A stretch of 32,000 nt of DNA. Source: Xanthomonas campestris pv. campestris str. ATCC 33913. GTDB taxonomy: Bacteria; Pseudomonadota; Gammaproteobacteria; Xanthomonadales; Xanthomonadaceae. A program made the position numbers and the translations under genes. A model generated the notes under the pieces. It made no database searches. It had not been told where the DNA came from and was given only the letters and a program-made list of their open reading frames with translations. This document shows positions 2,796 to 29,302 of the stretch, one piece after another. The stretch covers positions 3,866,497-3,898,496 of the forward strand of contig NC_003902.1 in the NCBI RefSeq assembly GCF_000007145.1, written 5' to 3'. How positions within the stretch are numbered: position 1 is the stretch's first letter; the number at the start of each line of letters is the position of its first letter.

Positions 2796-2992
2796 CGCCC
2801 AGGGGCGTGACGACGCCCGCCGCGTTCGCGCAGAATTGCAACGCCGCAGGTGAGCGGGTCGCGGCAGGCAGATCCACGCTGGCGGCAGCACGCAACCAAC
2901 TTCCCCAGCGCAGCTCACGCTCGCCGCACCAGGACAGCCTCACAACGATTGCGGCAAAATTGCGCATTGCCTTGCAACGCGATCGAGCCCGT

Positions 2993-5179: not shown

Positions 5180-5243
5180 AGTCAATTCAACCTTCGGGAG
5201 ATTCAAACAATATCCGACGTCGGAAAGCACCTCATCCCGGCAG

Positions 5244-5268
5244 GCGAAGATTGAAACTAAAATGCGAA
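5244..5268 (-). promoter_or_regulatory. PIP box (HrpX-binding plant-inducible promoter element), perfect TTCGC-N15-TTCGC
   Basis: The plus strand reads GCGAA at 5244-5248 and GCGAA at 5264-5268, exactly 15 nt apart, which is TTCGC-N15-TTCGC on the effector strand. TATTGT (plus 5207-5212), which fits the YANNNT -10 pattern, follows 31 nt downstream, inside the 30-32 bp spacing described for HrpX promoters. Confidence 0.75.
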
Positions 5269-5467
5269 AAATCTCGACTTGTTACTTCAAGCGCAAAACG
5301 ATTGGTGAAAATCTCGATACACTCATGTCTCGATCGGTCAACCTATCGCCAGAAATCAGCCGATCAGCACGACACTGCTTTCAGACATTGAAAACAACTT
5401 TCATCGATTGAGAGTTTGTCTGCAGTCACGTGCGTCTAGCACAACCACCGCTCTCCATTGGCATTTC

Positions 5468-6802: not shown

Positions 6803-6814
6803 ATCGTGCGGCGG

Positions 6815-7357
6815 TCAGTTCAGGCGTTGGCGAAAGCGCGGCCCCATCACGCAGTCGCCATGCAGCAACAGCACCGCCACGCGCACGAATTCCTCGATCT
6901 CGGCCAGGGCGGTGTCGTCTTCCTCGGCGGTATCGAAGTCGTCGCTGGACGCCTGCGCGAGCCGGGCCAGATCCTGCAGCGCTTCTTCGCCTTCTTCGGA
7001 CAGTGCCGGGCGCTGCTGCGCAGCCAGGCCAAACCCGCCCAGAAACGCGCGGCACCAGTCGAACAGCGCATCGGTGCGGGCCGGCAGCGGTGCGCCGTCC
7101 TCGGTCAGCAGCAGCTCGAAGGCAAAGTCGCGGTCTTCCAGCTGCGCCACGGTGGCCTGCCGCATCTGATCCAGGGCGCCGCCCTGCGCGGGGGCCACCT
7201 GCGCGGTGTCGGCCAGGATGCGCGCCAGCCAGTCGGCACTGTCGGCGCCGCCGCCGGACAGCCAGCCGCACAGGCCGCCATGCAGTTCCGCCGCGGAGGA
7301 AGCCAGGTCCAACTGGCGACTTTCGTGTTGCACAGCGGCTACATCGGGCAGATCCAT
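6815..7357 (-). CDS. ygfB: UPF0149 family protein (YgfB-like)
   Basis: 180 aa from ATG 7357 ([18 protein letters not shown]...). It has an acidic C-terminal region ([22 protein letters not shown]) and sits immediately upstream of pepP, as in E. coli and Pseudomonas. The start is uncertain; ATG 7459 is an alternative. Confidence 0.75.
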
Positions 7358-7556
7358 CAGGTCATCCAGGCTGAGTCGAAAAGATGCCGGCCCGGGGCCG
7401 GCGATATGACTACCCAGTGTACCAAGGCACCCGCCGCTCGCCCCACTACCATGTTCCATGCAGCGTTCCACGCGGTGCGCCGGGTGGGCCGTCAACGCTG
7501 CGCCAGCCCTTGCGGCGGCTGCGCTTGCGGCGTTTACGGCCAGCGCGTGCAGGCGC

Positions 7557-7586
7557 TTGACCGGCGCGCGCACGCGCCCCTATCGT
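7557..7586 (+). promoter_or_regulatory. Candidate sigma70 promoter for the zapB-like/zapA pair
   Basis: TTGACC (7557-7562), an 18-nt spacer, then TATCGT (7581-7586). The -10 ends only 6 nt before ATG 7593, so either the mRNA is leaderless or this is not the promoter. Confidence 0.25.
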
Positions 7587-7592
7587 GGGCGG

Positions 7593-7814
7593 ATGGACAA
7601 CGCCGCCGCCCTCGCCCAGCTCCGCGCACTCGCCGCCCGTGTGGAGGCGTTGGTGGAGCGCACCCAGCGGCTCACCGACGAAAACCGCAGCCTGCGCCAC
7701 CAACAGGAACAGTTGATCGGCGAGCGCGCGCAGCTGCTGACCAAGAACGAACAGGCACGCTCGCGCGTGGAAGCCATGATCGTGCGATTGAAGTCACTGG
7801 AGCAGCACACGTGA
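7593..7814 (+). CDS. Small coiled-coil protein, ZapB-like / TIGR02449-like
   Basis: 73 aa from ATG 7593 (MDNAAALAQLRALAARVEALVERTQRLTDENRSLRHQQEQL...). It has a heptad-like coiled coil and sits directly upstream of zapA, overlapping it (GTGA at 7811-7814). Confidence 0.65.
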   Translation: MDNAAALAQLRALAARVEALVERTQRLTDENRSLRHQQEQLIGERAQLLTKNEQARSRVEAMIVRLKSLEQHT

Positions 7815-13741: not shown

Positions 13742-16700
13742 TTAGAAGTCGTAGCTCAGCGTCACCCGGCCCGAGCGCGGCGCCTGGTAGGCGACGACCT
13801 GGTCCCACAGGGGATTGGTGGTGTTGTCGGGCAACTGCGAGAACGGGTAGATGTTGGTCGCGGTCTGCTCGTTGGTGATGTTGAACACATCGAAGCGCAG
13901 CGCCAGCTTGCCGTCGGCGAAGGCCGGCTTGTAAGTCACGCCCATGTCGAGCTGGGCGATCCAGCCCAGGCGGCCCTGCGAGCCCGGCGGCGATGCACTG
14001 CCGGTGCCTGTTTCCGGGTTGTAGCAGTAGTGGTACGGCCCACCGGTGATCGCGCTGCCGCCGTAACCGGCCGGATCGCGACCGCTGTATTCGGTGCCGT
14101 AGTAATTGCCCAGGCAGTTGTGCGGTGCGCCCGAGATCAGGCTGAAGTTAGCCGACGCGCCCCATTGCGGAGTGAACTGATAGAAGCCGAACAGCTTCAA
14201 CTGGTGGCGGTGATCGTTGGATTGATCGCCATTGAAGTGCTCCATCAGCGCTGCGTGGTCCCAGCTCTGCGTGGTCGAGACCGAGGCCTGGCCCTGGTAG
14301 CTGCCCAACGCGCCGCCGGTGCGCCACAGGTCCGAACGCACCTGGCCTTCGGTGGTGCCGTAGCTATGCGACCACACGTAGTTGACCTTGGCGTACCACT
14401 TGCCGTCGAACGGGCGCTCCAGGTTGAACTCCACGGCCGAATAGTTGCGCTTGAACTTCGGGAACCCGGCTGCTTCGCGGCTGACCGAGATTTCATGGAA
14501 CTGGCCATCGGTGCCGATCACGCCCCACTTGTTGGTCTGGCCCGGGTTGATCAGCGAGGCGCCGGCCACCTGCGAGAAATCGATGGTCACGCCCTGTGCG
14601 GCGGCGGCGTCGATCAGCGCGGTGTTGGAGACGTCGTAGTTCTGGTCGTCGATGCCGGCATTGAGGTGGCGGTGCGTGCCGCGCACGCCGAACACCCAAC
14701 CACTGTCCAGCTGCTTGGTCAGGCCCAGGATGATTTCGTCCTGGTTTTCGCCCTCGATGTCCTTGACCACGGCGGTGCGCACATCGGCGATGCGGCCGAA
14801 ACGCGAATTGGCCGAGACCGCCGACCCCAGTTGCTGCGCCAGCACCGGCGTGCCATCGGCGTTGATGCCGCTGTAGGTGTAGTAGGTGTCGGTGGTGGTG
14901 GCCGGCGTGAACAGGCTCACCGCCGACAACGGCAGACCCAGGTAGTAACGGCCGATGTTGCCGAACACCTTCAGGCTGGAATCGCCGTTGACGTCCCAGC
15001 TGAAACCCAGCCGCGGCGCCCAGGCGTTGTCGACTTCGATATAGGGGTCGCCGAACGGGGTGTAGTTGGTGAACTCGTCCTTGCGCAGGCCCAGGCTCAG
15101 CAACAGGTTGTCGGTGACCTGCCACTTGTCTTCGATGTAGTAGGCGCGCTGCTTGGCCTCGTACGAATACAGGCTGGTGTTGATGTTGCGTACCACGTAA
15201 TAGCCACTGGAACCGTTGACCGGATCCACCAGGCCGGGGCTGGGCGCGCCGATGCCGCCGGCTTCGTTGCCGATTGGCTGACCAGGCCGCCAGTCGCCAG
15301 GCCGTTCGGATCGTTGGTCTGCCCATAAGTCCACGCGTAGCCGGGGCCGGACAGTACCGAGCCGACGTCGATGCCTTCGGATTTTTGGTTGTCGATACCG
15401 AAGTTGAGCGTGTGGTGGCCCACGCGCCATTCCAGATTCAGGCGTTGGTTGTCTTTTTTGTCCTCGCGGTCGGGCGAGCTGACCGAGGTCACCAGCTGGT
15501 TGCCGATGCGCGGCGTGCCACCGGTGTAGGCCGGATTCTGCAGCGCGGCGCTATTGATCACCGGGCCGCCGGCCGGGTCGTAGTTGAAAGCGGTCAGCTC
15601 ATCGGGCGTGCGCATCTTGCCGTACAGCGCGGTCACGGTGAGGTTGTCGCCGATATAGCCGGTGTACTTGCCGGTGAACAGCGTCGGACCGGTCTTCCAG
15701 GTGGATTCGTTGGTGAAGTAGCTGCCGCGTTCGCGCGCCAGATAGTCGTACCGATAGATGGCGCCGTTGGTTTCGGCTTCGTCGCTGGCACCGGTCACCT
15801 CGATCAGGTGGTTGTCGGTGATGTTCCAGTCCACCTTGGCGTACCAGCGCTTCTGCTTGTAGTCGTAGTCGGTCAGGCCGCCGGTGCGGCCGTTGTCCGA
15901 GTCGCGGTTGGTCGCGGTGCGGGTGCCGTCGGAATCCACCTGCTCGGCGGCCAGGAAGAAGAACAGCTTGTCCTGGATGATCGGGCCACCGACATAGGCG
16001 CTGTAGGTGGTCTGGTTGGCTTCGGCTTCGCTGGAGGGCTGGTACAGGCCGTTGGCTGCACGCGCATAACGGTATGCGGCATTGTTGACGGTGCCGGCCT
16101 GTGCATCCGGGCGCCAATAGATGTCGCGCTGGTTGGTGCGCAGGCCGTTGGGTTCCCAGATCACCGCGGCGCCGAACTTCCACTCGTTGGTGCCGCGCTT
16201 GCCGATCTGGTTGATCACGCCGCCGTTGGAGCGGCCGAACTGCGCGCCGTAGCCGCCGGTGAAGATTTCCTGCTGGTCGATGGCGCCGTAAGGCAGGGTC
16301 AGGCCGCCCAGGTTGTTGCTGATGGCGGTGGTGTTGAAGCCGTTGAGGTAATAGGCGTTCTCGCTGGCGGCCGAGCCACCGAAGCTGGGCAGCGAGCCGC
16401 CGAGCGGGCCGTTGTCGAAGCCGCCGCTGTTGACCACCACACCCGGCGCCAGCAGCGCGATCGCTTCGGCGGTGCGCCCCAGCGGCAGCTGCGCCAGCTG
16501 TTCGGAAGTGACCACGGTGCGGGTGTCCACGCTGCTGACGTCGATGGTGGCCAGGCTGGCGGCGTTGACGGTGACGCTATCCAGCGTCTGCACGCCGCTC
16601 CCCGCGGCAGCAAACGACACATCGGTATTGGCGCCCACCGTGATGCCCACGTTCTCGCGCGTTTCCACCACCGCGCCATCGCGCTTGACGGTGACCTTGT

Positions 16701-16914
16701 AGGTGCCCAGCGGCAGGTTGCCGGCGGCGTAGCGGCCGCGCGCGTCTACCGGCACTTCGCGGCTGAAGCCGCTGTTGTTTTCGACCAGTACGGTGGTGCC
16801 GACACCTTCGCCGACACTGCCGACGATGCTGCCGGTGGTGGACTGCGCTTGCGCGGCGCCCAGTGCAACGAGCAGTGCCACTGCCAAGGCACGTCTCTGG
16901 ATACTACGGTTCAT
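13742..16914 (-). pseudogene. Oar-like TonB-dependent outer-membrane receptor, interrupted by a frameshift near 15270-15300
   Basis: Two overlapping ORFs in different frames (15097-16914 and 13742-15430) together encode ~1057 codons. Order of parts: signal peptide (MNRSIQRRALAVALLVALGAAQA), a carboxypeptidase-regulatory-like domain (GSIVGSV...YKVTVKRDG), a plug, a long beta-barrel and a terminal ...LSYDF. Sense switches from ...NDPNGLATGGLV (frame A) to GQPIGNEAGGIGAPSPGLVDP (frame B), which needs a 1-nt loss or 2-nt gain. A sequencing error cannot be excluded. Confidence 0.8.
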
Positions 16915-18574: not shown

Positions 18575-18740
18575 GCTGACAGGTGCCAAGGGATGGGCAT
18601 GGGTGGGGACCCACGAAGCAGCGCAGTGCAGCCGATCTCACCGTTCGCGGTGATTCCGGCGCCGTCGCCGCTGCTTCATCGTGTTGCGCGGCGTGTCGGT
18701 TGGCACGCGGCCAACGCTTTGCCACGGCCGCCCTCGCCTC

Positions 18741-21506
18741 ATGCTCAAGCCTGTTGCGTTGCTCACCCCGCGCCCGTCACCGTCGCGCGACCTCCCCCTT
18801 CCCGATTGGCTGCTCGCCAGCAAGCTGGAGCCGCCGTTGCCGCGTGTCGGCGCGGTTGTGCGTGGCGGCCTGCTGGCCGTGCTGGATCAGGCGCAGGCGC
18901 GGCCGCTGACCCTGCTGCTGGCACCGCCCGGCTTCGGCAAGAGCACGCTGCTGACGCAGTGGCATGCGCAGCTGCTGGCGCGCGAGCCGGTCGCCGTGGC
19001 ATGGCTGTCGCTGGATGAAGAAGACGCCGAGCCCGCGCGCTTTCTCGGCCATCTCGCGCTTGCCCTGCAAGGCGCCGGTGCGGACCCTGCCCTGTGCGCG
19101 CCAGCCCTGCACGGCCGCGACCACGATCCGCGCGACGCACTCAATGCGCTGATCCGCGCCCTGCGCGCGGCACCGCGCCGCATCAGCGTGATCCTGGACG
19201 ACTACGACCGCCCCGGCGGCAGCGCGATCGACGAGCTGGTGTTGCGGCTGATCGAACACGCTGGTGGCCGCCTGCACCTGCTGTTGTCCACCCGCCGCGT
19301 CCCTGGCCTGCCACTGGCGCGGCTGGAATTGCAGGCCCAGCTCACGCGCGTCGGCAGCGGCGAACTGGCGCTGGACGAGGACGAAGCACAGGCGCTGCTG
19401 GGTGCGCAGGTGGCGGCCCCGGTGGTGGACGAACTACGCCGCTATACCGAAGGCTGGCCGGTCGCCCTGCATCTGGCCCGGCTGTGGCTGGAAGGCGGCG
19501 CACAACGCCAGCAGGAAGTGGCCACGCGGTTTTCCGGGCGCAACGCACAGATTGCTGCGTATCTGGCCGAACAGGTGGTCAACGACCTGGATGCGGACAC
19601 GCGCGACCTGTTGCTGCGCACCAGCCCGCTGGAGCGGGTCAACGCGGCGCTGGCCGATGCGGTACGCCAGCGCGACGACAGTGGCCGGCTGTTGGCCGGG
19701 CTGGAACATTTCCATGGCTTGCTGATCCCGCTGGATGGCGAGCGCGAATGGTTCCGTTACCACCCGTTGTTCGCAGATTTCCTGCAGCAGTTGCTCGATC
19801 GCGAACATCCCGCCGGCGCGCTGCAGATTCACCAGCGTGCCGCGCGCTGGTTCGGCGAACACCAGTACCTGTCCGACGCGGTCCGTCACGCCTCGCGCGG
19901 CGAATGCGGCGACCTGGCCGCCAGCTACGTGGCACGCGCCGGCACCTGGCAGTTGCTGCTCACCCATGGCACCCATCAGGTGCGCGCGCTGCTGCGCCAC
20001 TTCGACCACCGCACCATCCGCGACACGCCTGCGTTGAATCTCACCCAGGCGCATCTGCACATGAAGCTGGGCGAGTTCAGTCATGCCCGTCTGCTGCTGG
20101 AGCGCTTTCGCGATTTTCCCGCCGCGCTGCGCGAGCCGTTGCAACGCGACTACACCGTGGTGGTGGCAGCACTGCGCGAGCGGCTGGATGAAATCTGCGG
20201 CAACCCGCATGGCCTGACCCAGATCGCGGGCCAGGCGGCCGCGCTGGACGAAGACGACCATCTTGGCCGCGGCATGCTGCTGTGCATCTGCGCCGCCACC
20301 GCACTCGCGCAAGGTGGCTTCGCGCTGGCCGAGCGCTATGCGCATGGCGGGCGCGAGGCCATGGGACGCGGCGGCAGCGAGCTCGGCACCGGTCATGCAC
20401 TGCTGGTGCTGGGGCAGAGTTTTTTCTATCGCGGCCGGCTGGGCGATGCCGAGGCGTGCTATCAGCACGCACTCAACGGCTGCCTGCGTGCGCCGCAGCC
20501 AGACCGCGTCCTGCAGGCCACCGCACACTGCCTGCTGGCGCAATTGCATTACGAACGCGGGCACCACGACGATGCCGCCGACCTGCTGCATCCGGCGCTG
20601 GACATCCTGGAGCAGCACGACGGCAGCACCGACGTGCTGGCCGCCGGCTACGACACCGCGCTGGGGCTGGAGCGCCTGCGCGATCACAGTGGCCGCAGCG
20701 CGGCCGCTTTGCTGGAACACGTGGAGCAGATTGCACACGGGCGCAAGCTCGCGCGCCTGTCCGAACTGGCCGCCGCCTGGCGCTTGATGGTGATGCTGGA
20801 GCACCCGGGCAACGCCGCCATCGATGTGCTGATTGCACGCACCGGCGGCGAATCCGGGCTGGCGCATACCCTGCGCTCGCCGCACCGCTGGCGCGACCGA
20901 GCAGCGATGGGGTTCGCGCTAGCGCGCTGGCATCGCCTGGCCGGCCGCAGCAGCGCGGCGCTGACCATCCTGGGCCAGATCGAACAGGCCTGCCTTGCCA
21001 GCGACAACCTCTGCCACCTGGCACGCACCCGCGCACGCATCGCCCTGGTACTGCAACAGCGTGGTGAACTGGCTGCGGCATTGCCGTATCTGTACAGCGC
21101 GCTGGACCACGTTGCGCTGACCCGCAGCTGGCAAGCCATTGCAGAACTGGGGCTGCCGGCAAAAGCGATGCTGCGCTCGCTACGCCAGCACGACCCGCAG
21201 ACCGTGGCCGGCACCACCCGCGCGCTCACCATCCAGGCCTTGCTGGACAGGCTCAGTGGCGACGACGATCCGGCCAACGATCTGTTTAGCGAACGCGAAC
21301 TGGAAGTGCTTGCGCAACTGGCGCGCGGCTATTCCAACAAGCAGATCGCACGCTGCCTGCACCTGTCGGAAAACACCGTCAAATTTCACTTGAAGAACGT
21401 GTACCGCAAGCTCGATGCACGCAGCCGCGAAGGTGCACTGGCGCAGGCCTTGCAGCGCGGCTTGTTGCGCGAGATGGACCCACCAACAGGGCCAACCACA
21501 CTCTGA
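18741..21506 (+). CDS. Large ATP-binding LuxR-family regulator (MalT/LAL type)
   Basis: ~921 aa from ATG 18741; the ORF also opens at 18681. It has an N-terminal Walker A (LLLAPPGFGKSTLL), a long helical/TPR-like middle and a C-terminal LuxR HTH (SERELEVLAQLARGYSNKQIARCLHLSENTVKFHLKNVYRKLDARSR). Confidence 0.85.
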   Translation: MLKPVALLTPRPSPSRDLPLPDWLLASKLEPPLPRVGAVVRGGLLAVLDQAQARPLTLLLAPPGFGKSTLLTQWHAQLLAREPVAVAWLSLDEEDAEPARFLGHLALALQGAGADPALCAPALHGRDHDPRDALNALIRALRAAPRRISVILDDYDRPGGSAIDELVLRLIEHAGGRLHLLLSTRRVPGLPLARLELQAQLTRVGSGELALDEDEAQALLGAQVAAPVVDELRRYTEGWPVALHLARLWLEGGAQRQQEVATRFSGRNAQIAAYLAEQVVNDLDADTRDLLLRTSPLERVNAALADAVRQRDDSGRLLAGLEHFHGLLIPLDGEREWFRYHPLFADFLQQLLDREHPAGALQIHQRAARWFGEHQYLSDAVRHASRGECGDLAASYVARAGTWQLLLTHGTHQVRALLRHFDHRTIRDTPALNLTQAHLHMKLGEFSHARLLLERFRDFPAALREPLQRDYTVVVAALRERLDEICGNPHGLTQIAGQAAALDEDDHLGRGMLLCICAATALAQGGFALAERYAHGGREAMGRGGSELGTGHALLVLGQSFFYRGRLGDAEACYQHALNGCLRAPQPDRVLQATAHCLLAQLHYERGHHDDAADLLHPALDILEQHDGSTDVLAAGYDTALGLERLRDHSGRSAAALLEHVEQIAHGRKLARLSELAAAWRLMVMLEHPGNAAIDVLIARTGGESGLAHTLRSPHRWRDRAAMGFALARWHRLAGRSSAALTILGQIEQACLASDNLCHLARTRARIALVLQQRGELAAALPYLYSALDHVALTRSWQAIAELGLPAKAMLRSLRQHDPQTVAGTTRALTIQALLDRLSGDDDPANDLFSERELEVLAQLARGYSNKQIARCLHLSENTVKFHLKNVYRKLDARSREGALAQALQRGLLREMDPPTGPTTL

Positions 21507-21513
21507 GTTCAGC

Positions 21514-21577
21514 CGCGCATCACAGCCGTGGCTGGATGCGCGACAGGCGTAGAGCGATGCAGCGCGTGCGCTGCATC
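21514..21577. terminator. Two tandem GC hairpins between the convergent regulator and azurin genes
   Basis: The first is cgcgcatc-a-cagcc-gt-ggctg-gatgcgcg (21514-21542). The second is gatgcagcgc-gt-gcgctgcatc (21556-21577), which overlaps the azurin stop. Neither has a U-tract. Confidence 0.35.
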
Positions 21578-22025
21578 ACCCGAAGCGCAGCGTACCCTTC
21601 ATCATGGCCCAGTGGCCGGGGAACGAGCAGAAAAACGTATACGCGCCACCCTTGCTCAACTTGCTGGTCGGGAAGGTCACCGTGGCGGTTTCGCCAGCGC
21701 CGATCACCTTGGTGTGCGCGATCACGCGCGGGTCGGCCTTGGGCAGGTAGCTGTCGGCGATGGTGGAGCGCACGCCGGCGTTGGCCACGGCCTGGAAATC
21801 GTCGCTCTTGGTCAGCACCCAGTTGTGCCCCATCACCGTGGCGGCAAGTTTGCCGGAGTGCTTGAGCGTCACGGCGACTTCGGTGCAATCGGGAGCGATC
21901 GTGATCGCGCTCTGGTCGAATTTCATCTGGTCGGTACCGGTGATGGTCACCGCACAGGTCTTCGCCCACGCTGATGGTGCCAATGACACCAGCGCAAGCA
22001 CGGCAATGGTCGAAAGCAGCTTCAA
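21576..22025 (-). CDS. azu: Azurin (blue copper electron carrier), Sec signal peptide
   Basis: 149 aa if started at TTG 22025, with AGGAG 7 nt upstream. The signal is (M)KLLSTIAVLALVSLAPSAWA. The mature part aligns by eye with P. aeruginosa azurin (DQMKFD, VMGHNWVL, RVIAHTK, FFCSFPGHWAMMKGTL, which carries the Cys/His/Met copper ligands). Confidence 0.9.
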   Translation of the reverse strand: MKLLSTIAVLALVSLAPSAWAKTCAVTITGTDQMKFDQSAITIAPDCTEVAVTLKHSGKLAATVMGHNWVLTKSDDFQAVANAGVRSTIADSYLPKADPRVIAHTKVIGAGETATVTFPTSKLSKGGAYTFFCSFPGHWAMMKGTLRFG

Positions 22026-22187
22026 GGACACACTCCTGCAAAAAGGGTTGCGCGCTGCCCGGCCACGTAGATGCCGGTGCCGGATGCCTGACGCGGCGCG
22101 CATGCGTCGGCGCCGTCAGAGTACCGCGAGCAGGCACGCGGCAGGCAACCCCTGCCCGATGTTTTTTGTCGCACGCGGCGCCCTGCG

Positions 22188-23387
22188 CTAGGCGTAGCGG
22201 AAGAAGGCATCCATCGGCGTCTGTACGCTTGCGGTGGCGTCGGGCAGCGGCAACGGGCCACGTTTGCCGGCCATGACCTGCACGAAGGCCTGCTTGAAGC
22301 GCGCCATCTCCTCGGGCGTGCCCACCGTGATCCGCGACCAGGTGGGCCACACCGGCCAGCTGCGGCCGATAAATACACCGAAGGTGGCCATGGCGTCCTT
22401 GAAGCCGGCCGCAGGCTGTTTTACATCGACCATGAAGCAGTTGCTTTCCGAAGCGGTGCAGGCATAGCCCTGCTTGGTGAGGAAGTCGATGACATCGGCG
22501 CGGGTGGCCGCAGTGCGTGCGCGCCGTTGCGGCACCAGCGTGGCATCGCGCAGGCTGGCCAGGCCCGCCGCGGCCGCGGTCACCGGCAGGCTGTTGACGC
22601 TGTAGAACATCAGCTTGGCCAGCAGGTCCGGGCGTGCTGCCGCATAGCCCAGGCGGATGCCGGCCATGCCGTAGAGCTTGGAGAAGGTGCGCAGTACCAC
22701 CACGTCTTCTCCCGCGGCCACCATGTCCACCACGCTGCGGGTGCTCTGCGCGAAATGGATGTAGGCCTCGTCCACCACCAAAATGCTGTCCTTGGGCTTG
22801 TGCGCCAGCGCGTAGTCCAGATCCTTGCGTGCGGTCACTGAGCCAGTGGGATTATTGGGATTGCAGATGTAGATCACGCCAGCGTTGGCATCGGCTGCGC
22901 ACATCGCCTGCACGTCGTGCGAGAAGTCCTTGCGCAACGGCACCTTGACCAGCTTGGCGCCATTGCGGGACGCAGCGCGCCAGCCGGATTCGTAGGTGGG
23001 GTCGGCGCTGACCAGCGCGGCACTGGGCGAGGTGAAGGCCAGCATCGTGTAGTCCAGCGGCTCGGTAGAACCGGCATAGGCCATCAGGTGGTTCACCGGC
23101 AGCTTGAGCTCAGCGGCCAGGGTGGTCATCAGTTCCATCTGCAGCTCACGCAGATATCGCCCACCCTGCGGCGCAATCTGGGTGATTGCCTTGATCGCCG
23201 CAGCACACGGGCCATCGGGAAACTCGTTGGAGCCGATCATCACCGGCGCCATTGCGCCCGCTGCGGCAGGCGCGATGGCGGCCGAGCGTTCGGCGGCGCT
23301 GGCCAGCAGCGGCAGGGCGCCCCCGGCGGCACCGGCAAACAGGGCGGAATCACGCAGGAACCTGCGGCGCGACAGAGCGGTATGCAT
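22188..23387 (-). CDS. Class I/II PLP-dependent aminotransferase (HisC-like) with twin-arginine signal peptide
   Basis: 399 aa from ATG 23387, with GGAGG 7 nt upstream. The N-terminus MHTALSRRRFLRDSALFAGAAGGALPLLASA fits the Tat consensus S/T-R-R-x-F-L. The PLP lysine context is RTFSKLYGMAGIRLGY. Confidence 0.85.
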   Translation of the reverse strand: MHTALSRRRFLRDSALFAGAAGGALPLLASAAERSAAIAPAAAGAMAPVMIGSNEFPDGPCAAAIKAITQIAPQGGRYLRELQMELMTTLAAELKLPVNHLMAYAGSTEPLDYTMLAFTSPSAALVSADPTYESGWRAASRNGAKLVKVPLRKDFSHDVQAMCAADANAGVIYICNPNNPTGSVTARKDLDYALAHKPKDSILVVDEAYIHFAQSTRSVVDMVAAGEDVVVLRTFSKLYGMAGIRLGYAAARPDLLAKLMFYSVNSLPVTAAAAGLASLRDATLVPQRRARTAATRADVIDFLTKQGYACTASESNCFMVDVKQPAAGFKDAMATFGVFIGRSWPVWPTWSRITVGTPEEMARFKQAFVQVMAGKRGPLPLPDATASVQTPMDAFFRYA

Positions 23388-23419
23388 GGTGAACCTCCAG
23401 CAAGATGACGAAGACGAAC

Positions 23420-23923
23420 TCAAGGACGCACGGCAACCACTTCGATCTCTACCCGGTACAACGGGTTGCCCAGCGCGGCGATCTGAAACGCCGAGCGCGC
23501 CGGCAGATTGGGTTGCTCCTTGGTGCCGAAATACTGCCGGTAGCCCTCCATGAATCCGTTGAAATCCATCTTGCCGTCCATGGCCGGATCGCCGACCAGG
23601 AACACCTGCATCTTCACCACATCGCCCATCCCCAGGCCCAGCGATTCCAGCTGCTGCTTGATCTGCGCAAGCACGCTGATGGTCTGCGCATTGGTATCGC
23701 CGTAGGCGGCGGCCGAGCCCTTCGGCGCTGTGGTATCCACCACCGCCGGCACCTTGCCGCTGACATACACGGTGGCCTTGCCGGCCGGTACCTCCACGGC
23801 CGCGGCAATCGGGAAATCGCTATTGGGAATCTTGTGGCGGATCACCTCGGCGGCCTGTGCGGCGGCAACACTTCCACACCACAGCACGGCGGCGGTGGCG
23901 GCAATCACGGCGGGACGGAACAT
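23420..23923 (-). CDS. RidA/YjgF family imine deaminase with Sec signal peptide
   Basis: 167 aa from ATG 23923, with AAGGAG 6 nt upstream. The signal is MFRPAVIAATAAVLWCGSVAAAQA. The C-terminal PARSAFQIAAL...RVEIEVVAV matches the E. coli RidA PARSCVEVA...KIEIEAIAV region, including the Arg needed for imine hydrolysis. Confidence 0.85.
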   Translation of the reverse strand: MFRPAVIAATAAVLWCGSVAAAQAAEVIRHKIPNSDFPIAAAVEVPAGKATVYVSGKVPAVVDTTAPKGSAAAYGDTNAQTISVLAQIKQQLESLGLGMGDVVKMQVFLVGDPAMDGKMDFNGFMEGYRQYFGTKEQPNLPARSAFQIAALGNPLYRVEIEVVAVRP

Positions 23924-23948
23924 GGCAACTCCTTGCATGAGGAAACGG

Positions 23949-24374
23949 TCAGTGGCGCAGCAGTTTGACGTCGTCGACAGTAACCACTTCGGCGTGGTCA
24001 TTACCGAAATGAGTTCGCACATAGCTCACCACTTCGGCCACCTGGCGGTCGGTGAGCATGTCACCGAAACCCGGCATGCCGGCGTGGCCGTCGAGCACCA
24101 TCATGGTGACGTACGGCGCGGCGGCGAGTTTGGGGTTGCCGGCCAGCGCCGGATATTCGCCCGCCCCCTGCACCCCAGTGCCGCTGGGCATGTGACAGCC
24201 CTGGCACACGGCCTGGTAGACATGCTGGCCGGAGGCGGTGGCAAAGCCTTTCTGCGGATACAGCGCGGTGGCATCGGAACTCTGCGCCTGTGCATCGTGC
24301 AGGCCAGGCGGCAGCAGCAATGCACCGATGCACAGCACCGCTGCCGCAGCGAACACACGGGGGAACAGCGTCAT
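23949..24374 (-). CDS. Monoheme class I cytochrome c with signal peptide
   Basis: 141 aa from ATG 24374. The signal is MTLFPRVFAAAAVLCIGALLLPPGLHDAQA. There is a single CQGCH heme site and a distal Met candidate in HAGMPGFG. The start overlaps the stop of the upstream flavoenzyme gene (ATGA at 24374-24371). Confidence 0.85.
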   Translation of the reverse strand: MTLFPRVFAAAAVLCIGALLLPPGLHDAQAQSSDATALYPQKGFATASGQHVYQAVCQGCHMPSGTGVQGAGEYPALAGNPKLAAAPYVTMMVLDGHAGMPGFGDMLTDRQVAEVVSYVRTHFGNDHAEVVTVDDVKLLRH

Positions 24375-25978
24375 GCGCGAGCTCCTTGGGCAAGCACCTT
24401 GCGATGCAGGCGGCCGACCACGTCGTGCGCGGACAAGATCGCGCCCTCCTGCCAGGCCGGGATGTAAGACACGTGCTCGCCGGCCAGCGCCAGGCGGCCA
24501 TCGATCTGGCACAGCGGCGCGTAATGCTCGGCGCGCGCGGCCTCGCTCCACATGCCAAAGCACCCATGCGTAAACGGCACACGATGCCAGCCCACTGCAA
24601 TGCCGGTTTCGAATTCGCGTGGATATTGCGGATGCAATTGCGTGCCGTATTCGACCGCCTTGCGCACACGCTGCTCCGGGGACATCGAGGTGAACTGGTA
24701 GGCGTCCAAACCCCAGACGTAGGCGCCCAGCAACACACCCTTGCCGGGGCTGTGATAGCCGGTACTGGGATAGCTGATCAGCGTGATCGGCAGATCCGTG
24801 TAGCTGATGCCGCCGTAGATCACCTCGTCCTCTTCCCAGAAGCGGCGCTTGAACTGCAGCCCCACCTTCACCGACGCCGCATACGGCACCTTGCCGATCG
24901 CCGTGGTCATCGCATCGCTGGCAGTGGCCGGGATGCGGCTCAAGACCGAGAGGGGGATCGTGCAGATGCACCAGTCGGCACTGGCCACCTGTTCGGCGCC
25001 ACCGCGCGCGGCATCCTGCCAGGACACGCGCACGCCGCTGCCGTCCTGATCAATCCTGGTGACCTTGGCGTTATAGGTGATGGCATTGCCGAGCTGGCGG
25101 GCAAACGCCTTGCCGATCTGGTCCATGCCGCCCACCGGCTGGAACATGGTGGTCTGCATTTCGTAGTTGTTACCAGCCGCCAGCGTGGTCCACAGCCGTG
25201 ACCGCAGCACGTCCTGCACGCTGAAGGGATCGGAAAACTCCGGTTTGCCGGACAAACCGCCACCCGGGTAGCGCGCAAAGCCGCGGCGCTCGCTGCTGTC
25301 CTTGCCCTTGACGTAGCCAAAGCGTTTGTCGAGCGCGCCCCAGGTGCGCAGCGATTCGAGCAGGATCTGCTGATCCTCAGTGCTCACCAGGCTGTCCAGT
25401 GCGTGTTGCTGGGTGCACTTGGCCAGCAGTTCGGAGACATGGCCCTTGTAGTCCGCATCGATGGCGCGGAAGCGCTGCGGCTTGCCATCGAAGCCGTGCT
25501 GGCTGTGCAGCAAGGCGTTGTAGTTGACCTGATTGAATGCCTCCAGCGCCACGCCGAACTGCTTGCAGTAACTCAGCACCGCGCGGTGGTGATGCGGGAT
25601 GCGCCACGGACCGGGATTGAGGTAATGGCCCTCATCGAACTGGCAGTGCTGCGCCGCGCCACCGAGTTCGGTGTAACGGTCGCCGCCGCGCAGTGTCCAG
25701 TTCCGGCCGCCCGGGCGGTCGTTGTATTCCAGCACCTGTACGCGGTACCCCGCCTTGCGCAATTCGAACGCCGCCGTCATGCCCGCCAGGCCGGCACCGA
25801 GAATCAGCACCGATGCCCCCTTGGCGTCGCCATCGAGTTGCAGCGGCCCGGTAAAGGTGGATTCGGCCGCCATGCCCAGGCTGCTCATCGCCTGATACAT
25901 CATCGCGCCGCCCGCGGTCATGCCGATCCGTGCCAGCAGCTGCCGGCGTGTCATTGCCCCAGTGTGTTTGCCTTGCAT
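24371..25978 (-). CDS. Flavin amine-oxidase-fold enzyme with twin-arginine signal peptide
   Basis: 535 aa from ATG 25978; TTG 25981 and ATG 25954 are alternatives. The Tat signal is TRRQLLARIGMTAGGAMMYQAMSSLGMA. It has an FAD dinucleotide fold (VLILGAGLAGMTAAFELRKAGYRVQVLEYNDRPGGR) and length and architecture typical of the monoamine / L-amino-acid oxidase family. Confidence 0.85.
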   Translation of the reverse strand: MQGKHTGAMTRRQLLARIGMTAGGAMMYQAMSSLGMAAESTFTGPLQLDGDAKGASVLILGAGLAGMTAAFELRKAGYRVQVLEYNDRPGGRNWTLRGGDRYTELGGAAQHCQFDEGHYLNPGPWRIPHHHRAVLSYCKQFGVALEAFNQVNYNALLHSQHGFDGKPQRFRAIDADYKGHVSELLAKCTQQHALDSLVSTEDQQILLESLRTWGALDKRFGYVKGKDSSERRGFARYPGGGLSGKPEFSDPFSVQDVLRSRLWTTLAAGNNYEMQTTMFQPVGGMDQIGKAFARQLGNAITYNAKVTRIDQDGSGVRVSWQDAARGGAEQVASADWCICTIPLSVLSRIPATASDAMTTAIGKVPYAASVKVGLQFKRRFWEEDEVIYGGISYTDLPITLISYPSTGYHSPGKGVLLGAYVWGLDAYQFTSMSPEQRVRKAVEYGTQLHPQYPREFETGIAVGWHRVPFTHGCFGMWSEAARAEHYAPLCQIDGRLALAGEHVSYIPAWQEGAILSAHDVVGRLHRKVLAQGARA

Positions 25979-26075
25979 CAACGCGTGTACCCCTGCATGT
26001 CATGGACCGGACCCGACCAACTACCGTGCGCTGTGCCTGCGGCAACCGCGCGCACCCTGCAGCGCCACTCACACA

Positions 26076-26101
26076 CGCGGCCGGCAACACGGCCGGCCGC
26101 G
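26076..26101 (-). terminator. GC hairpin 10 nt after the receptor stop (possible attenuator or processing site)
   Basis: cgcggccgg / 8-nt loop / ccggccgcg. There is no U-tract, and it lies in the ~130-nt gap before the flavoenzyme gene. Confidence 0.3.
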
Positions 26102-26110
26102 TTGGCGCCG

Positions 26111-28402
26111 TCAAAATTTGTACGAAAGACTCGCAAACACCTGCCGCGGTGCAATCAGCTGATACGAGCCGGAACTTTCATTCGGGAACACCGCGCCGAT
26201 CGCGTCGTCCTTGTCGAACAGGTTGTAGACCGACAGTTGCAGCCGGCCGCCGGCCAGAAACCCGTCACTGCCGCCCTGATAGCCGACACTGCCATTGACA
26301 ATGAAGGTGGCATCCACCTGATCGGTATTGAGCGTGTCGCCGTAGCGCTTGCCGGTATATTTGGTATCCAGGTTGGCGAAGAAGTTCTCGCCCTCCCAGC
26401 CGCCATTGACGCTGAACATCACCTTCGGCGAATCCGGCACCTCGTTGCCTTCCACCTGCACCAGGCTGCCGCTGACCGGTCCGAAATAGTTGTCCTGGAA
26501 TTCGGATTTGTTCCAGGTCAGCGAGGCACCCAGCCGCCAGCCCGGCGCCGGCTTCCACATGCCGGAGACTTCTGCGCCATAGGTCTGCACGTCGCCGACG
26601 TTGGCATACACCGTGGGCGCCACCACCAACGGGTCCGGGTCGGTCAACGCGATGATGCGGTTTTCGTAATCGATCTTGTAGGCGGCGATGTAACCGCTCC
26701 ACTGGCTGGATTCGGCGCGAATGCCGATGTCGATATTGGTGGATTCTTCCGGTGCGATATCCGGATTGAACGCGCCCGAGGTCAGTGCCAGCCGCGGTGC
26801 GGAGCTGAAGTTCTCCGCATAGTTGGCGAACACCTGCACGCCATCGGCCAGCTGGAAACTGGCACCCACCTGCGGCTGGAACCAGTCGCTGTTCTTGATG
26901 GTGACATCGCGACGCACGCCGACATTGAAATCGTCGAGATTAGCGATGCCGTTGTAGTCGCGTTTGACATCCAGCCCCTTGGCGCCGAGTTCCAGCGTGA
27001 GCCGGTCATCGAGCAGGCGCAGTGTGTCCTTGATGTAGAGCTGCTTCACTTCGGTGGAGAAGTGGTTGTCGTAGTAGATGACGATCGGCAAGGCGCTTTT
27101 CAGCAACGCACCGGTGGCCGGGTCCAGGTTGTACAGCGGGCGCACCTGATCGAAATCGTAGTTCTCATACCAGGCACCGACTTCGAGTTTGTTGTGCTCG
27201 GTTTCCCACGACACCGCGGTGGTCGCGCCATAGCGGTCGCCGCCCATGATTTCCTCGCGCCGGGTCATCGCACCAACGCGGGTCACGTTGCCGGCGGCAT
27301 CCACAATCTGTGGGTCGTTGATGGCGATATCGGTGCGCCCTGGCGTGCCGGCGATGGCGTCGTTGTACAGGCCCGTCGCCGTGCTCGGCGGAGTTCCGCC
27401 AACGCCATAGCCGTGCTTGTTCTCGTAGTAGCCGGTGAAGGTGAAGCCGATCGCATCGTTGAACAGGAAATCGCCGTGCAGGCTGAGCAAGGAATCGCGG
27501 CGGCCGTTCTGCCACTCGCTGTAGTGCTCGGCGTCCACTTCGGGATTGCCGGTGATGCGTTCGTGCAGGTCCCACGACACCGAGCCATCGGAGTTGTACG
27601 ACTGCACGTCGTAGTCCTTGCGGTTGTTGTAGATCCAGCCCAGCGTCAGGCTGCCCGCGTCCCAGGCCTGGCGGATCTTGGCTTCGAAGTGATCGCTCTT
27701 CTGCGTGGCCGGCTCCATGTCCCACACCCCGCCCTGCGTGCGCGAGGCCGAGACGTAGGCACTCGGGCCACCGTCCCACCACTGCGGCGTATCCAGCCGC
27801 ACGAAGCTGCGCACCAGATCGTCCGAGCCAATGGTCTGGGTGAGGTTGCCACTCCAGGTATCGCCGCCCTTCGGTGGCAGGCTGGTGTAGCGGATCGCCC
27901 CGCCGAGAGCGTGGTAAGAGGGCTGGGTGACATCGCCCGAGCCAGCAGATACGGTGACATCGAGCAGGTTTTCGCTGGACACATAGCGGGTGATCGGCCC
28001 GCCTTCGCGGGTGTCGAAGGTTTCGATCGGAATCCCATCCAGGGTCACGCCGATCTGGTTGGCAGAAAACCCGCGGATGGTCATCGAATCACCGAACTCG
28101 TACAGACCGAACGGGTCGGTGGTCTGCACATTCACGCCCGGCAGGCTGGCCAGCAATTGCTGCGGGGCCACACCGGGCACCTGCGCCTGGATTTCCGCCA
28201 CGGAGATGGACGCGGTGGTGCGGGTGGAGCCGGTGCCCACCACACTGACGGCATCGAGCGTGCGTGCTTCCTGTGCAATCGCTGGCAGGCTGGAAGCACC
28301 CAGTAACAGTGCCATGGAGGCCGCGGCAGGGCGGCGGGTGAGCGTGGTGAGAGCGGCGGCGACCGAGGTCGCCAGATGGTCGGTCTTCAAGCGCTTGCGC
28401 AT
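26111..28402 (-). CDS. TonB-dependent outer-membrane receptor
   Basis: 763 aa from ATG 28402. A signal peptide ends in ...SSLPAIAQE. A TonB-box-like TLDAVSVVG is present, followed by plug and barrel motifs and the terminal ...SLSYKF. Confidence 0.9.
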   Translation of the reverse strand: MRKRLKTDHLATSVAAALTTLTRRPAAASMALLLGASSLPAIAQEARTLDAVSVVGTGSTRTTASISVAEIQAQVPGVAPQQLLASLPGVNVQTTDPFGLYEFGDSMTIRGFSANQIGVTLDGIPIETFDTREGGPITRYVSSENLLDVTVSAGSGDVTQPSYHALGGAIRYTSLPPKGGDTWSGNLTQTIGSDDLVRSFVRLDTPQWWDGGPSAYVSASRTQGGVWDMEPATQKSDHFEAKIRQAWDAGSLTLGWIYNNRKDYDVQSYNSDGSVSWDLHERITGNPEVDAEHYSEWQNGRRDSLLSLHGDFLFNDAIGFTFTGYYENKHGYGVGGTPPSTATGLYNDAIAGTPGRTDIAINDPQIVDAAGNVTRVGAMTRREEIMGGDRYGATTAVSWETEHNKLEVGAWYENYDFDQVRPLYNLDPATGALLKSALPIVIYYDNHFSTEVKQLYIKDTLRLLDDRLTLELGAKGLDVKRDYNGIANLDDFNVGVRRDVTIKNSDWFQPQVGASFQLADGVQVFANYAENFSSAPRLALTSGAFNPDIAPEESTNIDIGIRAESSQWSGYIAAYKIDYENRIIALTDPDPLVVAPTVYANVGDVQTYGAEVSGMWKPAPGWRLGASLTWNKSEFQDNYFGPVSGSLVQVEGNEVPDSPKVMFSVNGGWEGENFFANLDTKYTGKRYGDTLNTDQVDATFIVNGSVGYQGGSDGFLAGGRLQLSVYNLFDKDDAIGAVFPNESSGSYQLIAPRQVFASLSYKF

Positions 28403-28683
28403 GCAATCCACCCCTGGAGTCGTGTGACGTGCTGGATGACCGGGAGCTCCCCAACCCGGTTGACACCGCGCTGTGCGGTACAGCTCGACCATACCCAGCA
28501 CTACCGCAGCGCATGCCGCGCGCGGAGGGTAGGGGCGGCGCAGGTGGGTAGGCTGCTATCGAATTCAACTAGATGAAGCTGGAATGTGCCTACCCGTGTG
28601 CGGGGAGGTGCGCTGCGGTGGTGATGACTTGCCAGCGCATGCACGGATCGACGACGCTGCTGCGTTGCACATCGAACACGGCC

Positions 28684-29302
28684 ATGCCCGCTCCGCGTCC
28701 CTCCCTGTTATTGCTCGATTTCGATGGCGTGCTCGCCAGCTATGCGCGGCCCAAACGCATGGCGGCGCTGGCTGCGATGGCCAAGTGCACGCCGGCGCAG
28801 GTGCACGCCGTGTTGTTCGCGCAGGGGCTGGAGCGCAGCTACGACAGCGGCGACATCGATACGCCCACGTACTTGGCCCGTTTGAGCGATGCAGTAGGCC
28901 AGCGCATCGATCCTGCGGCCTGGGTGGCGGCACGCGTGGCCGCCTGCCGCGCCGATACATCGGTGTTGGCGCAGGTGCTTGCCGTGTCTGCACACACCCC
29001 GGTCGCCGTGCTCACGAACAACGGCCCGCTGATGGTCAGAGGCGATCGAGCAGATCGTGCCGGCGCTGTTCCCGCTGCTGCGCGGCCGGGTGCTGTGCAG
29101 CGGTGCCCTGGGCGGCCGCAAGCCCGATGCACGCGTCTATGCACGCGCACTCGCGCAGCTGGGCGCACGCGCTGCACACACGCTGTTTGTGGATGATTTG
29201 TTCGTCAACGTGCGCGGCGCACGCGCGGCCGGCCTGGAAGCGGACACTGTGCGTGATGCACGCGGACTGCGCCGGGTGTTGAAGCGGTATGGGCTGGCGT
29301 AG
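28684..29302 (+). pseudogene. HAD-superfamily hydrolase, interrupted by a +1 frameshift near 29038
   Basis: From ATG 28684, motif I is LLLLDFDGVL and motif II is AVLTNNG. After ...GPLMV the frame is lost. The downstream frame (ORF 29057-29302) carries EAIEQIVPALFPLL...GGRKPD (motif III Lys)...LFVDD (motif IV). Removing the single A at 29038 restores one ORF (...PLMVEAIEQIVP...). Confidence 0.75.

Follow-up and report, generated by a model that had tools for sequence, protein, structure and literature searches.

A periplasmic L-amino acid oxidase-type flavoenzyme of Xanthomonas campestris that probably acts as a dehydrogenase with a co-translated cytochrome c

We analysed a 32,000-nucleotide stretch of the chromosome of Xanthomonas campestris pv. 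campestris ATCC 33913 (Xcc), hereafter the window, in which a gene for a flavin amine oxidoreductase shares its stop codon with the start codon of a cytochrome c gene. The core of this gene cluster probably encodes a periplasmic, respiration-linked L-amino-acid dehydrogenase that uses the co-translated cytochrome c rather than O2, a reading drawn from sequence comparison and from analogy with characterised enzyme pairs. An earlier note on the same DNA had likewise proposed a dehydrogenase using the cytochrome rather than an oxidase, and our data favour that proposal. We adopt it because the cytochrome gene is invariably adjacent (70/70 loci), because the coupling of the two genes is nearly invariant (the same overlap in 59/70, with correlated divergence, r=0.96), because the oxidase sister clade has no cytochrome gene, and because an adjacent cytochrome c gene predicts dehydrogenase function in related enzymes (PMC12224317).

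The flavoprotein open reading frame (ORF) ends ...GCT CGC GCA TGA, with the TGA at 24373-24371, and the cytochrome ORF begins ATG ACG CTG, with the ATG at 24374-24372. The two codons thus share the ATGA at 24374-24371, exactly as the earlier note had read it. A single 4-nucleotide gene overlap is commonplace in bacteria, and it is the conservation of this one, not its mere presence, that exceeds chance by far. To collect relatives we scanned one genome per GTDB species, which gave 72 loci with flavoprotein identities of 53-95% from the Gamma-, Alpha- and Betaproteobacteria. The genera were Xanthomonas, Pseudoxanthomonas, Stenotrophomonas, Dyella, Luteibacter, Coralloluteibacterium, Acetobacter, Gluconacetobacter, Komagataeibacter, Lichenicoccus, Rhizosaccharibacter and Sphingomonas, together with Burkholderiaceae and other metagenome-assembled genomes; cytochrome counts refer to the 70 loci that have downstream sequence. 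A CxxCH cytochrome homologue is the next same-strand ORF after the flavoprotein gene in all 70, down to 53% flavoprotein identity, and conserved adjacency was one of the checks that the earlier note had proposed. The identical 4-nucleotide overlap occurs in 59 of the 70 and in all three proteobacterial classes, namely in Xanthomonadales including Luteibacter and Dyella, in Lichenicoccus (Acetobacteraceae), in Sphingomonas and in Burkholderiaceae. Among the 11 loci without it, L007 looks frameshifted, L063-L065 are probable artefacts of start choice, and the others have gaps of -1 to 79 nucleotides. The scan returned no locus from X. campestris itself (best 94-95% identity, from other species), and the window proteins are exact Xcc sequences; the species representative may have been masked, or missed by the word patterns of the scan.

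The pairwise distances of flavoprotein and cytochrome are strongly correlated (r=0.96), and none of 999 permutations gave a value as high. Co-divergence is expected of linked genes; what the correlation adds, as judged from these alignments, is that no repeated re-recruitment of the cytochrome took place. The sequences indicate that the two genes have been passed on together from before the divergence of the proteobacterial classes, and that the conserved core of the cluster is flavoprotein-cytochrome, usually with a gene for a Rid protein, which lies 3' of the cytochrome gene in 56/68 loci.

Besides its PF01593 domain, the flavoenzyme carries the flavin adenine dinucleotide (FAD) motif ILGAGLAG and matches NAD_binding_8. 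The nearest solved structure is the L-amino acid oxidase (LAAO) of Rhodococcus opacus, RoLAAO (PDB 2jae; E=7.8e-95, 39% identity over 471 aligned residues), followed in the PDB ranking by reconstructed and snake-venom LAAOs and then by L-glutamate and L-lysine oxidases. In the same PDB sequence search, monoamine oxidases (MAOs), putrescine oxidase and relatives of NicA2 (the 8eef group) matched only the N-terminal dinucleotide-binding motif. A structure model built from an alignment of 32 family sequences was mediocre (predicted local distance difference test, pLDDT, 63.7, with the helical domain unresolved) and was used for coarse fold ranking only; Foldseek again placed RoLAAO first, with LAAOs (snake and fungal ones among them), glutamate oxidases or lysine oxidases at all of ranks 1-25 and MAOs lower. 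The phylogenetic placement that the earlier note had suggested as a further check puts the enzyme, by neighbour-joining tree and by the searches, in an LAAO-type proteobacterial clade beside the RoLAAO clade.

The active site follows the same pattern. Taking the carboxylate-binding and pocket residues of RoLAAO as listed in PMC10900486, the carboxylate-binding R84 and Y371 and the pocket residues Y226, A466 and W467 are kept in the window enzyme as R126, Y420, Y272, A508 and W509 (numbered from the ATG), and D227 and W426 are replaced by Glu and Phe. The lysine beside flavin N5, K323 in RoLAAO, corresponds to K371 and is invariant in the 32 family sequences, as are the active-site Arg, Tyr and Trp and the twin arginines of the twin-arginine translocation (Tat) signal. 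In the window enzyme this signal reads TRRQLL, followed by a hydrophobic stretch and an A-x-A-like site. Because the carboxylate-binding Arg/Tyr pair and the remaining RoLAAO active site are retained, an L-alpha-amino acid is the predicted substrate, and the protein appears to be a Tat-exported enzyme built for L-alpha-amino-acid oxidation.

The earlier note had taken NicA2 and Pnao of Pseudomonas putida S16 as the nearest precedent, and in this it was mistaken: direct comparison with NicA2 (a sequence identical to PDB 7c4a) gave 21% identity over 283 residues and 35 bits, and close kinship to NicA2/Pnao was rejected. NicA2 appeared neither among the top 60 PDB sequence matches nor among the top 50 Foldseek fold matches, and at this similarity the window enzyme falls outside clades 1-3 of the NicA2 neighbourhood. 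Agreement between the NicA2 K340 motif, GAKLYV, and the region around K371 is at motif level only. The likeness to the NicA2/Pnao-CycN system is one of design: both combine a Tat-exported PF01593 flavoenzyme with a Sec-exported monohaem class I cytochrome c of about 11 kDa from the same operon, both act in the periplasm, and both are predicted to pass electrons from FADH2 by two one-electron transfers towards the respiratory chain. The systems differ in that their flavoenzymes are kin at superfamily level, in that the window substrate is predicted to be an L-alpha-amino acid rather than an alkaloid or amine, and in that the window operon includes an imine deaminase. We infer that the window enzyme is functionally like the NicA2-class dehydrogenases but stems from a separate, LAAO-type lineage.

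That flavin amine oxidases (FAOs) of this kind can be dehydrogenases is well documented. NicA2 and Pnao use CycN, and a further nine Tat-exported amine oxidoreductases have been tested; the tested representatives react with the cytochrome c of their own operon at 10^4-10^6 M-1 s-1 and poorly with O2 (PMC12224317). In 2025 Akram et al. (Stull laboratory) reported over 100 FAOs that have both a Tat signal and a cytochrome c gene next to their own, and they found the adjacent gene to be the best predictor of dehydrogenase function, better than the Tat signal (PMC12224317). The suggestion of the earlier note that the partnership extends beyond the nicotine pathway is therefore supported but not new. 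The set of Akram et al. comprised the top 5000 BLAST hits of NicA2 (PMC12224317), and at 35 bits the LAAO-type clade is very unlikely to have been among them. The text of that paper makes no mention of LAAOs, Xanthomonas, Rid proteins or azurin, and the accessible part of its supplement holds no Xanthomonas, Acetobacter or LAAO entries. Our literature search found no paper linking LAAO-type enzymes with NicA2-type cytochrome dependence and none on the Xanthomonas operon itself.

Relatives that have the enzyme without the cytochrome provide a natural contrast. A search seeded with RoLAAO returned Gram-positive relatives only (Rhodococcus, Nocardia, Gordonia, Streptomyces, Pseudonocardia, Kribbella, Kineococcus and one Paenibacillus), and in a midpoint-rooted neighbour-joining tree this clade, which includes the proven oxidase RoLAAO, stands apart from the proteobacterial clade. 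Its RoLAAO-type proteins also bear Tat signals. In all three Gram-positive contexts inspected, Rhodococcus (L073, 4001-6487), Kribbella (L074, 4001-6237) and Paenibacillus (L076, 4001-6318), a Rid gene comes immediately after the LAAO gene and a cytochrome c gene is absent; these Rid genes are unusually long (218-227 amino acids), and the Kribbella Rid is homologous to the window Rid protein (31% identity, 5e-17). Tat export and a Rid partner are thus common to both clades, whereas the intervening cytochrome gene is found only in the proteobacterial one. RoLAAO and its actinobacterial relatives share with the window enzyme the active-site residues, the Tat signal and the downstream Rid gene; they differ in that RoLAAO is a proven O2-using, H2O2-forming oxidase and its clade lacks a cytochrome c gene between lao and rid (3/3). 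Because the Gram-positive clade has the direct LAAO-Rid arrangement, the LAAO-Rid pair seems, on this comparison, to be older than the cytochrome partnership. Gain of the cytochrome may have gone with a switch of oxidant, in parallel with the rule of Akram et al. (PMC12224317). As side observations, the LAAO and Rid genes of Kribbella overlap by 4 nucleotides, and in Rhodococcus a tatA/E-like gene follows the Rid gene.

A cluster with the same core has been described in Gluconacetobacter diazotrophicus PAL5. There, Tn5 insertions in GDI2456 abolish conversion of Trp to indole-3-pyruvate and production of indole-3-acetic acid (IAA) (Rodrigues et al. 2016, PMC5053998). GDI2456 encodes a Tat-signal LAAO homologue clustered with cccA (a cytochrome c) and ridA (GDI2456-GDI2454); the authors described the lao-cccA-ridA cluster as conserved in Xanthomonas and Caulobacter and suggested that the cytochrome serves electron transfer from the LAAO (PMC5053998). 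Mutants of G. diazotrophicus in cytochrome c maturation (ccm) are reported to keep only 5% of their IAA (Lee et al. 2004, via PMC5053998). The window has the same order of Tat-LAAO, cytochrome c and Rid genes on one strand (25978-23420). At the Gluconacetobacter loci L060 and L061 the flavoprotein is 54% identical to the window enzyme, belongs to the same clade and stands in the same gene order, and the published primers for GDI2456 (lao) and GDI2455 (cccA) land on homologous positions of the window family. Because of this identity, this shared order and these primer positions, sequence comparison identifies the window cluster as the X. campestris member of lao-cccA-ridA. It is unlike the G. 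diazotrophicus cluster in having a co-directional receptor, a periplasmic aminotransferase, an azurin and a MalT-type regulator, which are missing from PAL5 (for the receptor, as an orthologue on the same strand), and the Gluconacetobacter loci examined have the genes 2 nucleotides apart, without overlap.

Both the concept of a cytochrome-coupled amine dehydrogenase (PMC12224317) and the cluster itself (PMC5053998) are thus already in the literature, and what we add is the extension to LAAO-type enzymes and a correction of annotation. A distant parallel is the periplasmic LAO1 of Chlamydomonas reinhardtii, with a catalytic M-alpha and a Rid-like M-beta subunit; as summarised in PMC5053998, it likewise pairs an extracytoplasmic LAAO with a Rid protein, and it yields ammonium from external amino acids and IAA from Trp. 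Unlike the window system it is eukaryotic, uses O2 and has no cytochrome partner.

The cytochrome bears a CQGCH haem motif, has MPGF as its Met-ligand motif, and starts with a Sec signal whose last residues are AQA. A lipobox was considered and rejected, as the signal-peptide Cys is not kept in orthologues and the -1 position is unfit. The core conserved in the family reads ...Y...CQ.CHM..G.G...P.LA.N...MP...L.D.Q.A.V..YVRTHFGN. The nearest solved relatives are haem domains in the AdhB, FdhC and GDH-beta subunits (8gy2_B, 7w2j_C and 8hdd_B; E 1e-11 to 7e-6), that is, in the cytochrome subunits of membrane-bound alcohol, fructose and FAD-glucose dehydrogenases, which take electrons from flavo- or quinoprotein dehydrogenases. 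We also observed that the window monohaem cytochrome is most like the third haem domain of these trihaem subunits, less like soluble c551/c6 types, and that a C-terminal YV/MR..(F/W)GN motif is common to both; this hints that the haem domains devoted to dehydrogenases share an origin. Fructose dehydrogenase, FAD-glucose dehydrogenase, and p-cresol methylhydroxylase and aromatic amine dehydrogenase with azurin are alike in passing periplasmic flavin or quinone electrons to a c-type haem or to azurin. The cytochromes of the fructose and FAD-glucose enzymes are, unlike that of the window, multihaem membrane-bound subunits that reduce ubiquinone, with the likeness confined to one haem domain, and the flavoproteins of these two enzymes and of p-cresol methylhydroxylase belong to other families (GMC, VAO). 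Separately, a second locus of Pseudoxanthomonas composti (L044, 8001-11728) has a flavoprotein, a cytochrome c and a second flavoprotein paralogue in succession (the flavoproteins 65% and 63% identical to the query), a layout that resembles nicA2-cycN-pnao in having a single cytochrome between two amine oxidoreductases.

These data allow us to propose how the core would work. The FAD-loaded LAAO-type enzyme would leave the cytoplasm through Tat, and the cytochrome c, the Rid3-subfamily protein and azurin through Sec, judging by the signal motifs in the translations. Given its RoLAAO-type active site, the flavoenzyme would oxidise the C-alpha-N bond of an L-alpha-amino acid to give a 2-imino acid. 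The reduced flavin would then give up its electrons one at a time, in two transfers, to the co-translated monohaem cytochrome c and not to O2, as the conserved coupling and the kinetics of other pairs suggest. Rid3, whose subfamily has this activity in vitro, would hydrolyse the imino acid to a 2-oxo acid and ammonium. From the reduced cytochrome c the electrons would go on to a terminal cytochrome c oxidase, and in xanthomonads azurin may act as a relay or in parallel. Nitrogen from amino acids would in this way be freed without H2O2 and with conservation of energy, and in xanthomonads the receptor, aminotransferase and regulator would adapt the core to an imported substrate.

Several points weigh against this reading. 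Among homologues with known biochemistry the nearest is RoLAAO, an authentic H2O2-forming oxidase, and the N5-adjacent lysine, which promotes O2 reactivity, is retained (K371); Akram et al. found this lysine also in proven dehydrogenases (PMC12224317). For the whole LAAO-type clade, dehydrogenase function is a deduction from comparison. The rule of the adjacent cytochrome gene was validated only in the BLAST neighbourhood of NicA2, outside which the window enzyme lies, and even within the validated set the B. anthina FAO reacts comparably with O2 and cytochrome c and the clade 1 pairs are sluggish with their cytochromes (PMC12224317). The ccm phenotype of G. diazotrophicus is pleiotropic and the Tn5 insertions are polar on cccA and ridA, so these mutants do not single out the role of the cytochrome. 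Finally, the locus scan was keyed on peptide words of the query and its sample is not exhaustive, and the flavoprotein model is weak.

The likeliest rival explanation is that the enzyme works in the periplasm as a true L-amino-acid oxidase, forming H2O2 from O2 and serving antagonism or the scavenging of nitrogen, with an accessory cytochrome that, for example, feeds a cytochrome c peroxidase which clears the H2O2, or that it uses both oxidants. RoLAAO, at 39% identity and with the same active-site residues and lysine, would be its model, as would the B. anthina enzyme and the Tat-exported FAOs without a cytochrome c gene, which are periplasmic oxidases (PMC12224317). We consider this unlikely. 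Adjacency in every locus and an identical overlap in most of them point to a stoichiometric redox partner, not an accessory protein, and the oxidase clade keeps Tat export and Rid yet has no cytochrome. Profile matches of the cluster proteins revealed no peroxidase or catalase gene in the cluster, and in G. diazotrophicus the product that depends on the LAAO is lost from ccm mutants (via PMC5053998). Together these data support a cytochrome-coupled dehydrogenase.

Around this core the window holds a larger cluster (Table 1). The earlier note had correctly listed the flavoprotein, the cytochrome and the azurin and had overlooked the Rid3 protein, the Tat-exported aminotransferase, the TonB-dependent receptor and the regulator.

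Table 1. Genes and sequence elements of the cluster, with coordinates in the window
Feature	Coordinates	Strand	Basis
TonB-dependent outer-membrane receptor, first gene of cluster	26111-28402	-	Pfam Plug and TonB_dep_Rec_b-barrel; exact Xcc AAM42549.1, same start
Perfect GC-rich hairpin GCGGCCGGC-CGTGTT-GCCGGCCGC	26077-26100	-	In the 132-nt spacer between receptor and flavoprotein genes; no T-run after; read from sequence
Tat-exported LAAO-type flavin amine oxidoreductase, 535 aa	24371-25978	-	PF01593 1.5e-61 (residues 65-523); Tat motif TRRQLL
AAGGAG Shine-Dalgarno sequence of cytochrome c gene	24382-24387	-	Within flavoprotein 3' end, 7 nt 5' of ATG
ATGA stop/start overlap (translational coupling)	24371-24374	-	Read from sequence
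Sec-exported class I monohaem cytochrome c, 141 aa	23949-24374	-	Cytochrome_CBB3 3.4e-14, Cytochrom_C 1e-9; CQGCH
Sec-exported Rid3-subfamily imine deaminase, 167 aa	23420-23923	-	PF01042
Tat-exported (SRRRFL) pyridoxal-phosphate aminotransferase, PRK09105 family, PtaA-like	22188-23387	-	NF006580; Pfam Aminotran_1_2
Azurin, TTG start, 149 aa with signal peptide	21576-22025	-	TIGR02695 189 bits, cutoff 105
MalT-like STAND/LuxR-family regulator, convergent with azurin	18681-21506	+	GerE, TPR_MalT and AAA_22

The genes of the cluster are closely packed, with spacers of -4 nucleotides between flavoprotein and cytochrome, 25 between cytochrome and Rid and 32 between Rid and aminotransferase, and with Shine-Dalgarno-like sequences before the cytochrome, Rid and aminotransferase starts (AAGGAG, CAAGGAG and GGAGG, respectively). 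The spacer between aminotransferase and azurin is longer (162 nucleotides) and has no canonical terminator. A scan of 21300-28900 found no promoters, and terminator-like sites were at the frequency expected from shuffled sequence; the hairpin in the receptor/flavoprotein spacer is a possible mRNA-stabilising or attenuating element. By the motifs in their translations, the flavoprotein and the aminotransferase carry Tat signals and the cytochrome, the Rid protein and azurin Sec-type signals. The starts chosen here yield exact Xcc database entries for the receptor, the flavoprotein, the cytochrome, the aminotransferase and azurin (e.g. AAM42549.1, Q8P5Q9_XANCP and, for azurin, Q8P5R2_XANCP); the Rid protein matches an X. 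campestris entry at 100% identity. The public names of these exact proteins are misleading, namely 'tryptophan 2-monooxygenase' or 'monoamine oxidase', 'cytochrome c6', 'TdcF protein' and 'histidinol-phosphate aminotransferase'.

The nearest structures to the Rid protein are PSPTO_3006 (9bka, 7e-35) and PFL_1385 (9bkc, 6e-31), and the catalytic Arg, equivalent to R105 of RidA, is present in a PARS motif that aligns with PAR(T) of both. These two Rid3 representatives deaminate imino acids made by L-amino acid oxidase and by DauA (Hodge-Hanson and Downs, PMC5619798), and RidA and Rid3 genes are known to cluster with FAD amine oxidases (Niehaus et al., PMC4433059). Gene contexts elsewhere vary and often point to amino-acid, peptide or keto-acid metabolism, with an X-Pro dipeptidyl peptidase in Dyella, trypsin and M43 peptidases in Kribbella, a gamma-glutamyltranspeptidase in Paenibacillus and an amino-acid permease in Rhodococcus. 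In the Lichenicoccus locus (L055, 9903-12933) the flavoprotein, cytochrome and Rid genes are followed by genes for a D-isomer-specific 2-hydroxyacid dehydrogenase and an MmgE/PrpD-family protein; these fit onward processing of a 2-oxo-acid product, comparable to the indole-3-lactate found in G. diazotrophicus cultures.

The remaining parts are confined to the Xanthomonas/Pseudoxanthomonas/Stenotrophomonas group. The aminotransferase, found in 39/63 loci and lost from several Xanthomonas species, scores 590 bits against NF006580 (the PRK09105 family; cutoff 444). PtaA is still its nearest equivalog, with 396 bits against NF051461, which is below the cutoff of 500. PtaA is a periplasmic pyoverdine transaminase that acts on the glutamate side chain of pyoverdine. 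A receptor orthologue lies directly upstream on the same strand in 37/66 loci; the receptor has a weak siderophore-receptor profile match and no PDB relative at E <= 1e-5, and no Fur-box-like site was found upstream of it (the best match, 10/19, is ordinary for the window). At the Gluconacetobacter loci L060 and L061 (~5158-7749, minus strand) a different TonB-dependent receptor lies divergently just 5' of the flavoprotein gene, and the association with outer-membrane receptors may be wider than the orthologue count implies. The MalT-like regulator (NF003420 MalT, 8e-87, under the cutoff) adjoins the cluster in 37/58 loci, and its position suggests a regulatory link.

These additions could be taken to mean that the cluster serves dedicated biosynthesis or modification of a TonB-imported compound, for example a siderophore-like molecule with a free alpha-amino-acid moiety, rather than general amino-acid catabolism. 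The PtaA-like aminotransferase, the receptor as first gene with its weak siderophore-receptor match and the dedicated MalT-type regulator adjoining the cluster are in favour, yet we give this explanation only a slim chance: the receptor lacks a Fur box, the PtaA score is under the family cutoff, the receptor, aminotransferase and regulator are absent from most non-xanthomonad loci and the aminotransferase even from several Xanthomonas species, and the peptidase, permease and 2-hydroxyacid dehydrogenase contexts elsewhere fit amino-acid and keto-acid metabolism.

Azurin, which the earlier note had pointed out and which indeed lies four genes downstream of the flavoprotein gene, is known to take electrons from aromatic amine dehydrogenase and p-cresol methylhydroxylase. 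The same note had named it a second candidate acceptor; as a relay or alternative acceptor it is plausible, but it stands outside the conserved core, occurring downstream on the same strand in 42/63 loci, and its distribution marks it as a lineage-specific extra, not a universal partner. That the flavoenzyme of Xanthomonas physiologically passes its electrons to azurin, with the cytochrome serving an aminotransferase branch or another enzyme, is highly improbable in spite of its frequent place at the cluster end and its known donors, as the Acetobacteraceae, Sphingomonas, Burkholderiaceae, Dyella and Luteibacter loci all keep the cytochrome gene without azurin, azurin is separated from the core by 162 nucleotides and two genes, and aminotransferases require no redox partner.

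With the cytochrome-coupled dehydrogenase as its centre, a broader proposal can be framed, which we regard as rather unlikely to hold as a whole: the proteobacterial LAAO-type enzymes would form a further cytochrome-c-dependent dehydrogenase lineage, the xanthomonad cluster would be a periplasmic 'transdeamination' engine, and Xanthomonas might possess an indole-3-pyruvate/auxin route. The cytochrome gene would have been inserted between the members of an older lao-rid pair. The TonB-dependent receptor would admit an amino compound, and the PtaA-like aminotransferase would move its amino group onto a 2-oxo acid supplied by the dehydrogenase/Rid3 pair. That pair would regenerate the 2-oxo acid with release of ammonium, and the electrons would reach the terminal oxidase by way of cytochrome c and azurin. 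The role assigned to the aminotransferase is coherent but speculative.

Three further observations concern other parts of the window. On the minus strand at 13742-16914, the ORFs 15097-16914 and 13742-15430 overlap in different frames and make up two halves of a large TonB-dependent receptor, the N-terminal half with CarboxypepD_reg, Plug and the start of the barrel and the C-terminal half with OMP_b-brl_4 (435-810); such a split, near 15100-15430, suggests either a frameshifted pseudogene or an error in the sequence. On the plus strand at 28573-29302, divergent from the cluster's receptor gene, a HAD-type hydrolase appears to be spread over two frames, with a DxDGV motif I in 28573-29196 and a Pfam Hydrolase C-terminal match in 29057-29302, possibly another frameshift. 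At 4556-5230 on the minus strand, a 224-amino-acid ORF may encode a secreted, effector-like metalloprotease, to judge by its match to Pfam Peptidase_M91 'Effector protein' (6.7e-32); it lies between two M24 peptidase genes, PepQ-like (2678-4318) and aminopeptidase P (5468-6802).

If the core acts as we propose, the proteobacterial 'L-amino acid oxidases' would join NicA2 and Pnao as misnamed dehydrogenases, and the oxidase-to-dehydrogenase revision of the amine oxidoreductase superfamily would reach its alpha-amino-acid branch. The Gram-positive cytochrome-free oxidases and the proteobacterial cytochrome-coupled clade would then offer a natural comparison for the control of flavin reactivity with O2. 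An LAAO that forms no H2O2 and has a protein electron acceptor would also be of use in keto-acid biocatalysis and in amperometric amino-acid sensors. For the biology of the organisms, the proposal would supply a mechanistic reason for the loss of auxin in cytochrome-c-maturation mutants of G. diazotrophicus, and it would give a major plant pathogen a candidate auxin or nitrogen-scavenging route.

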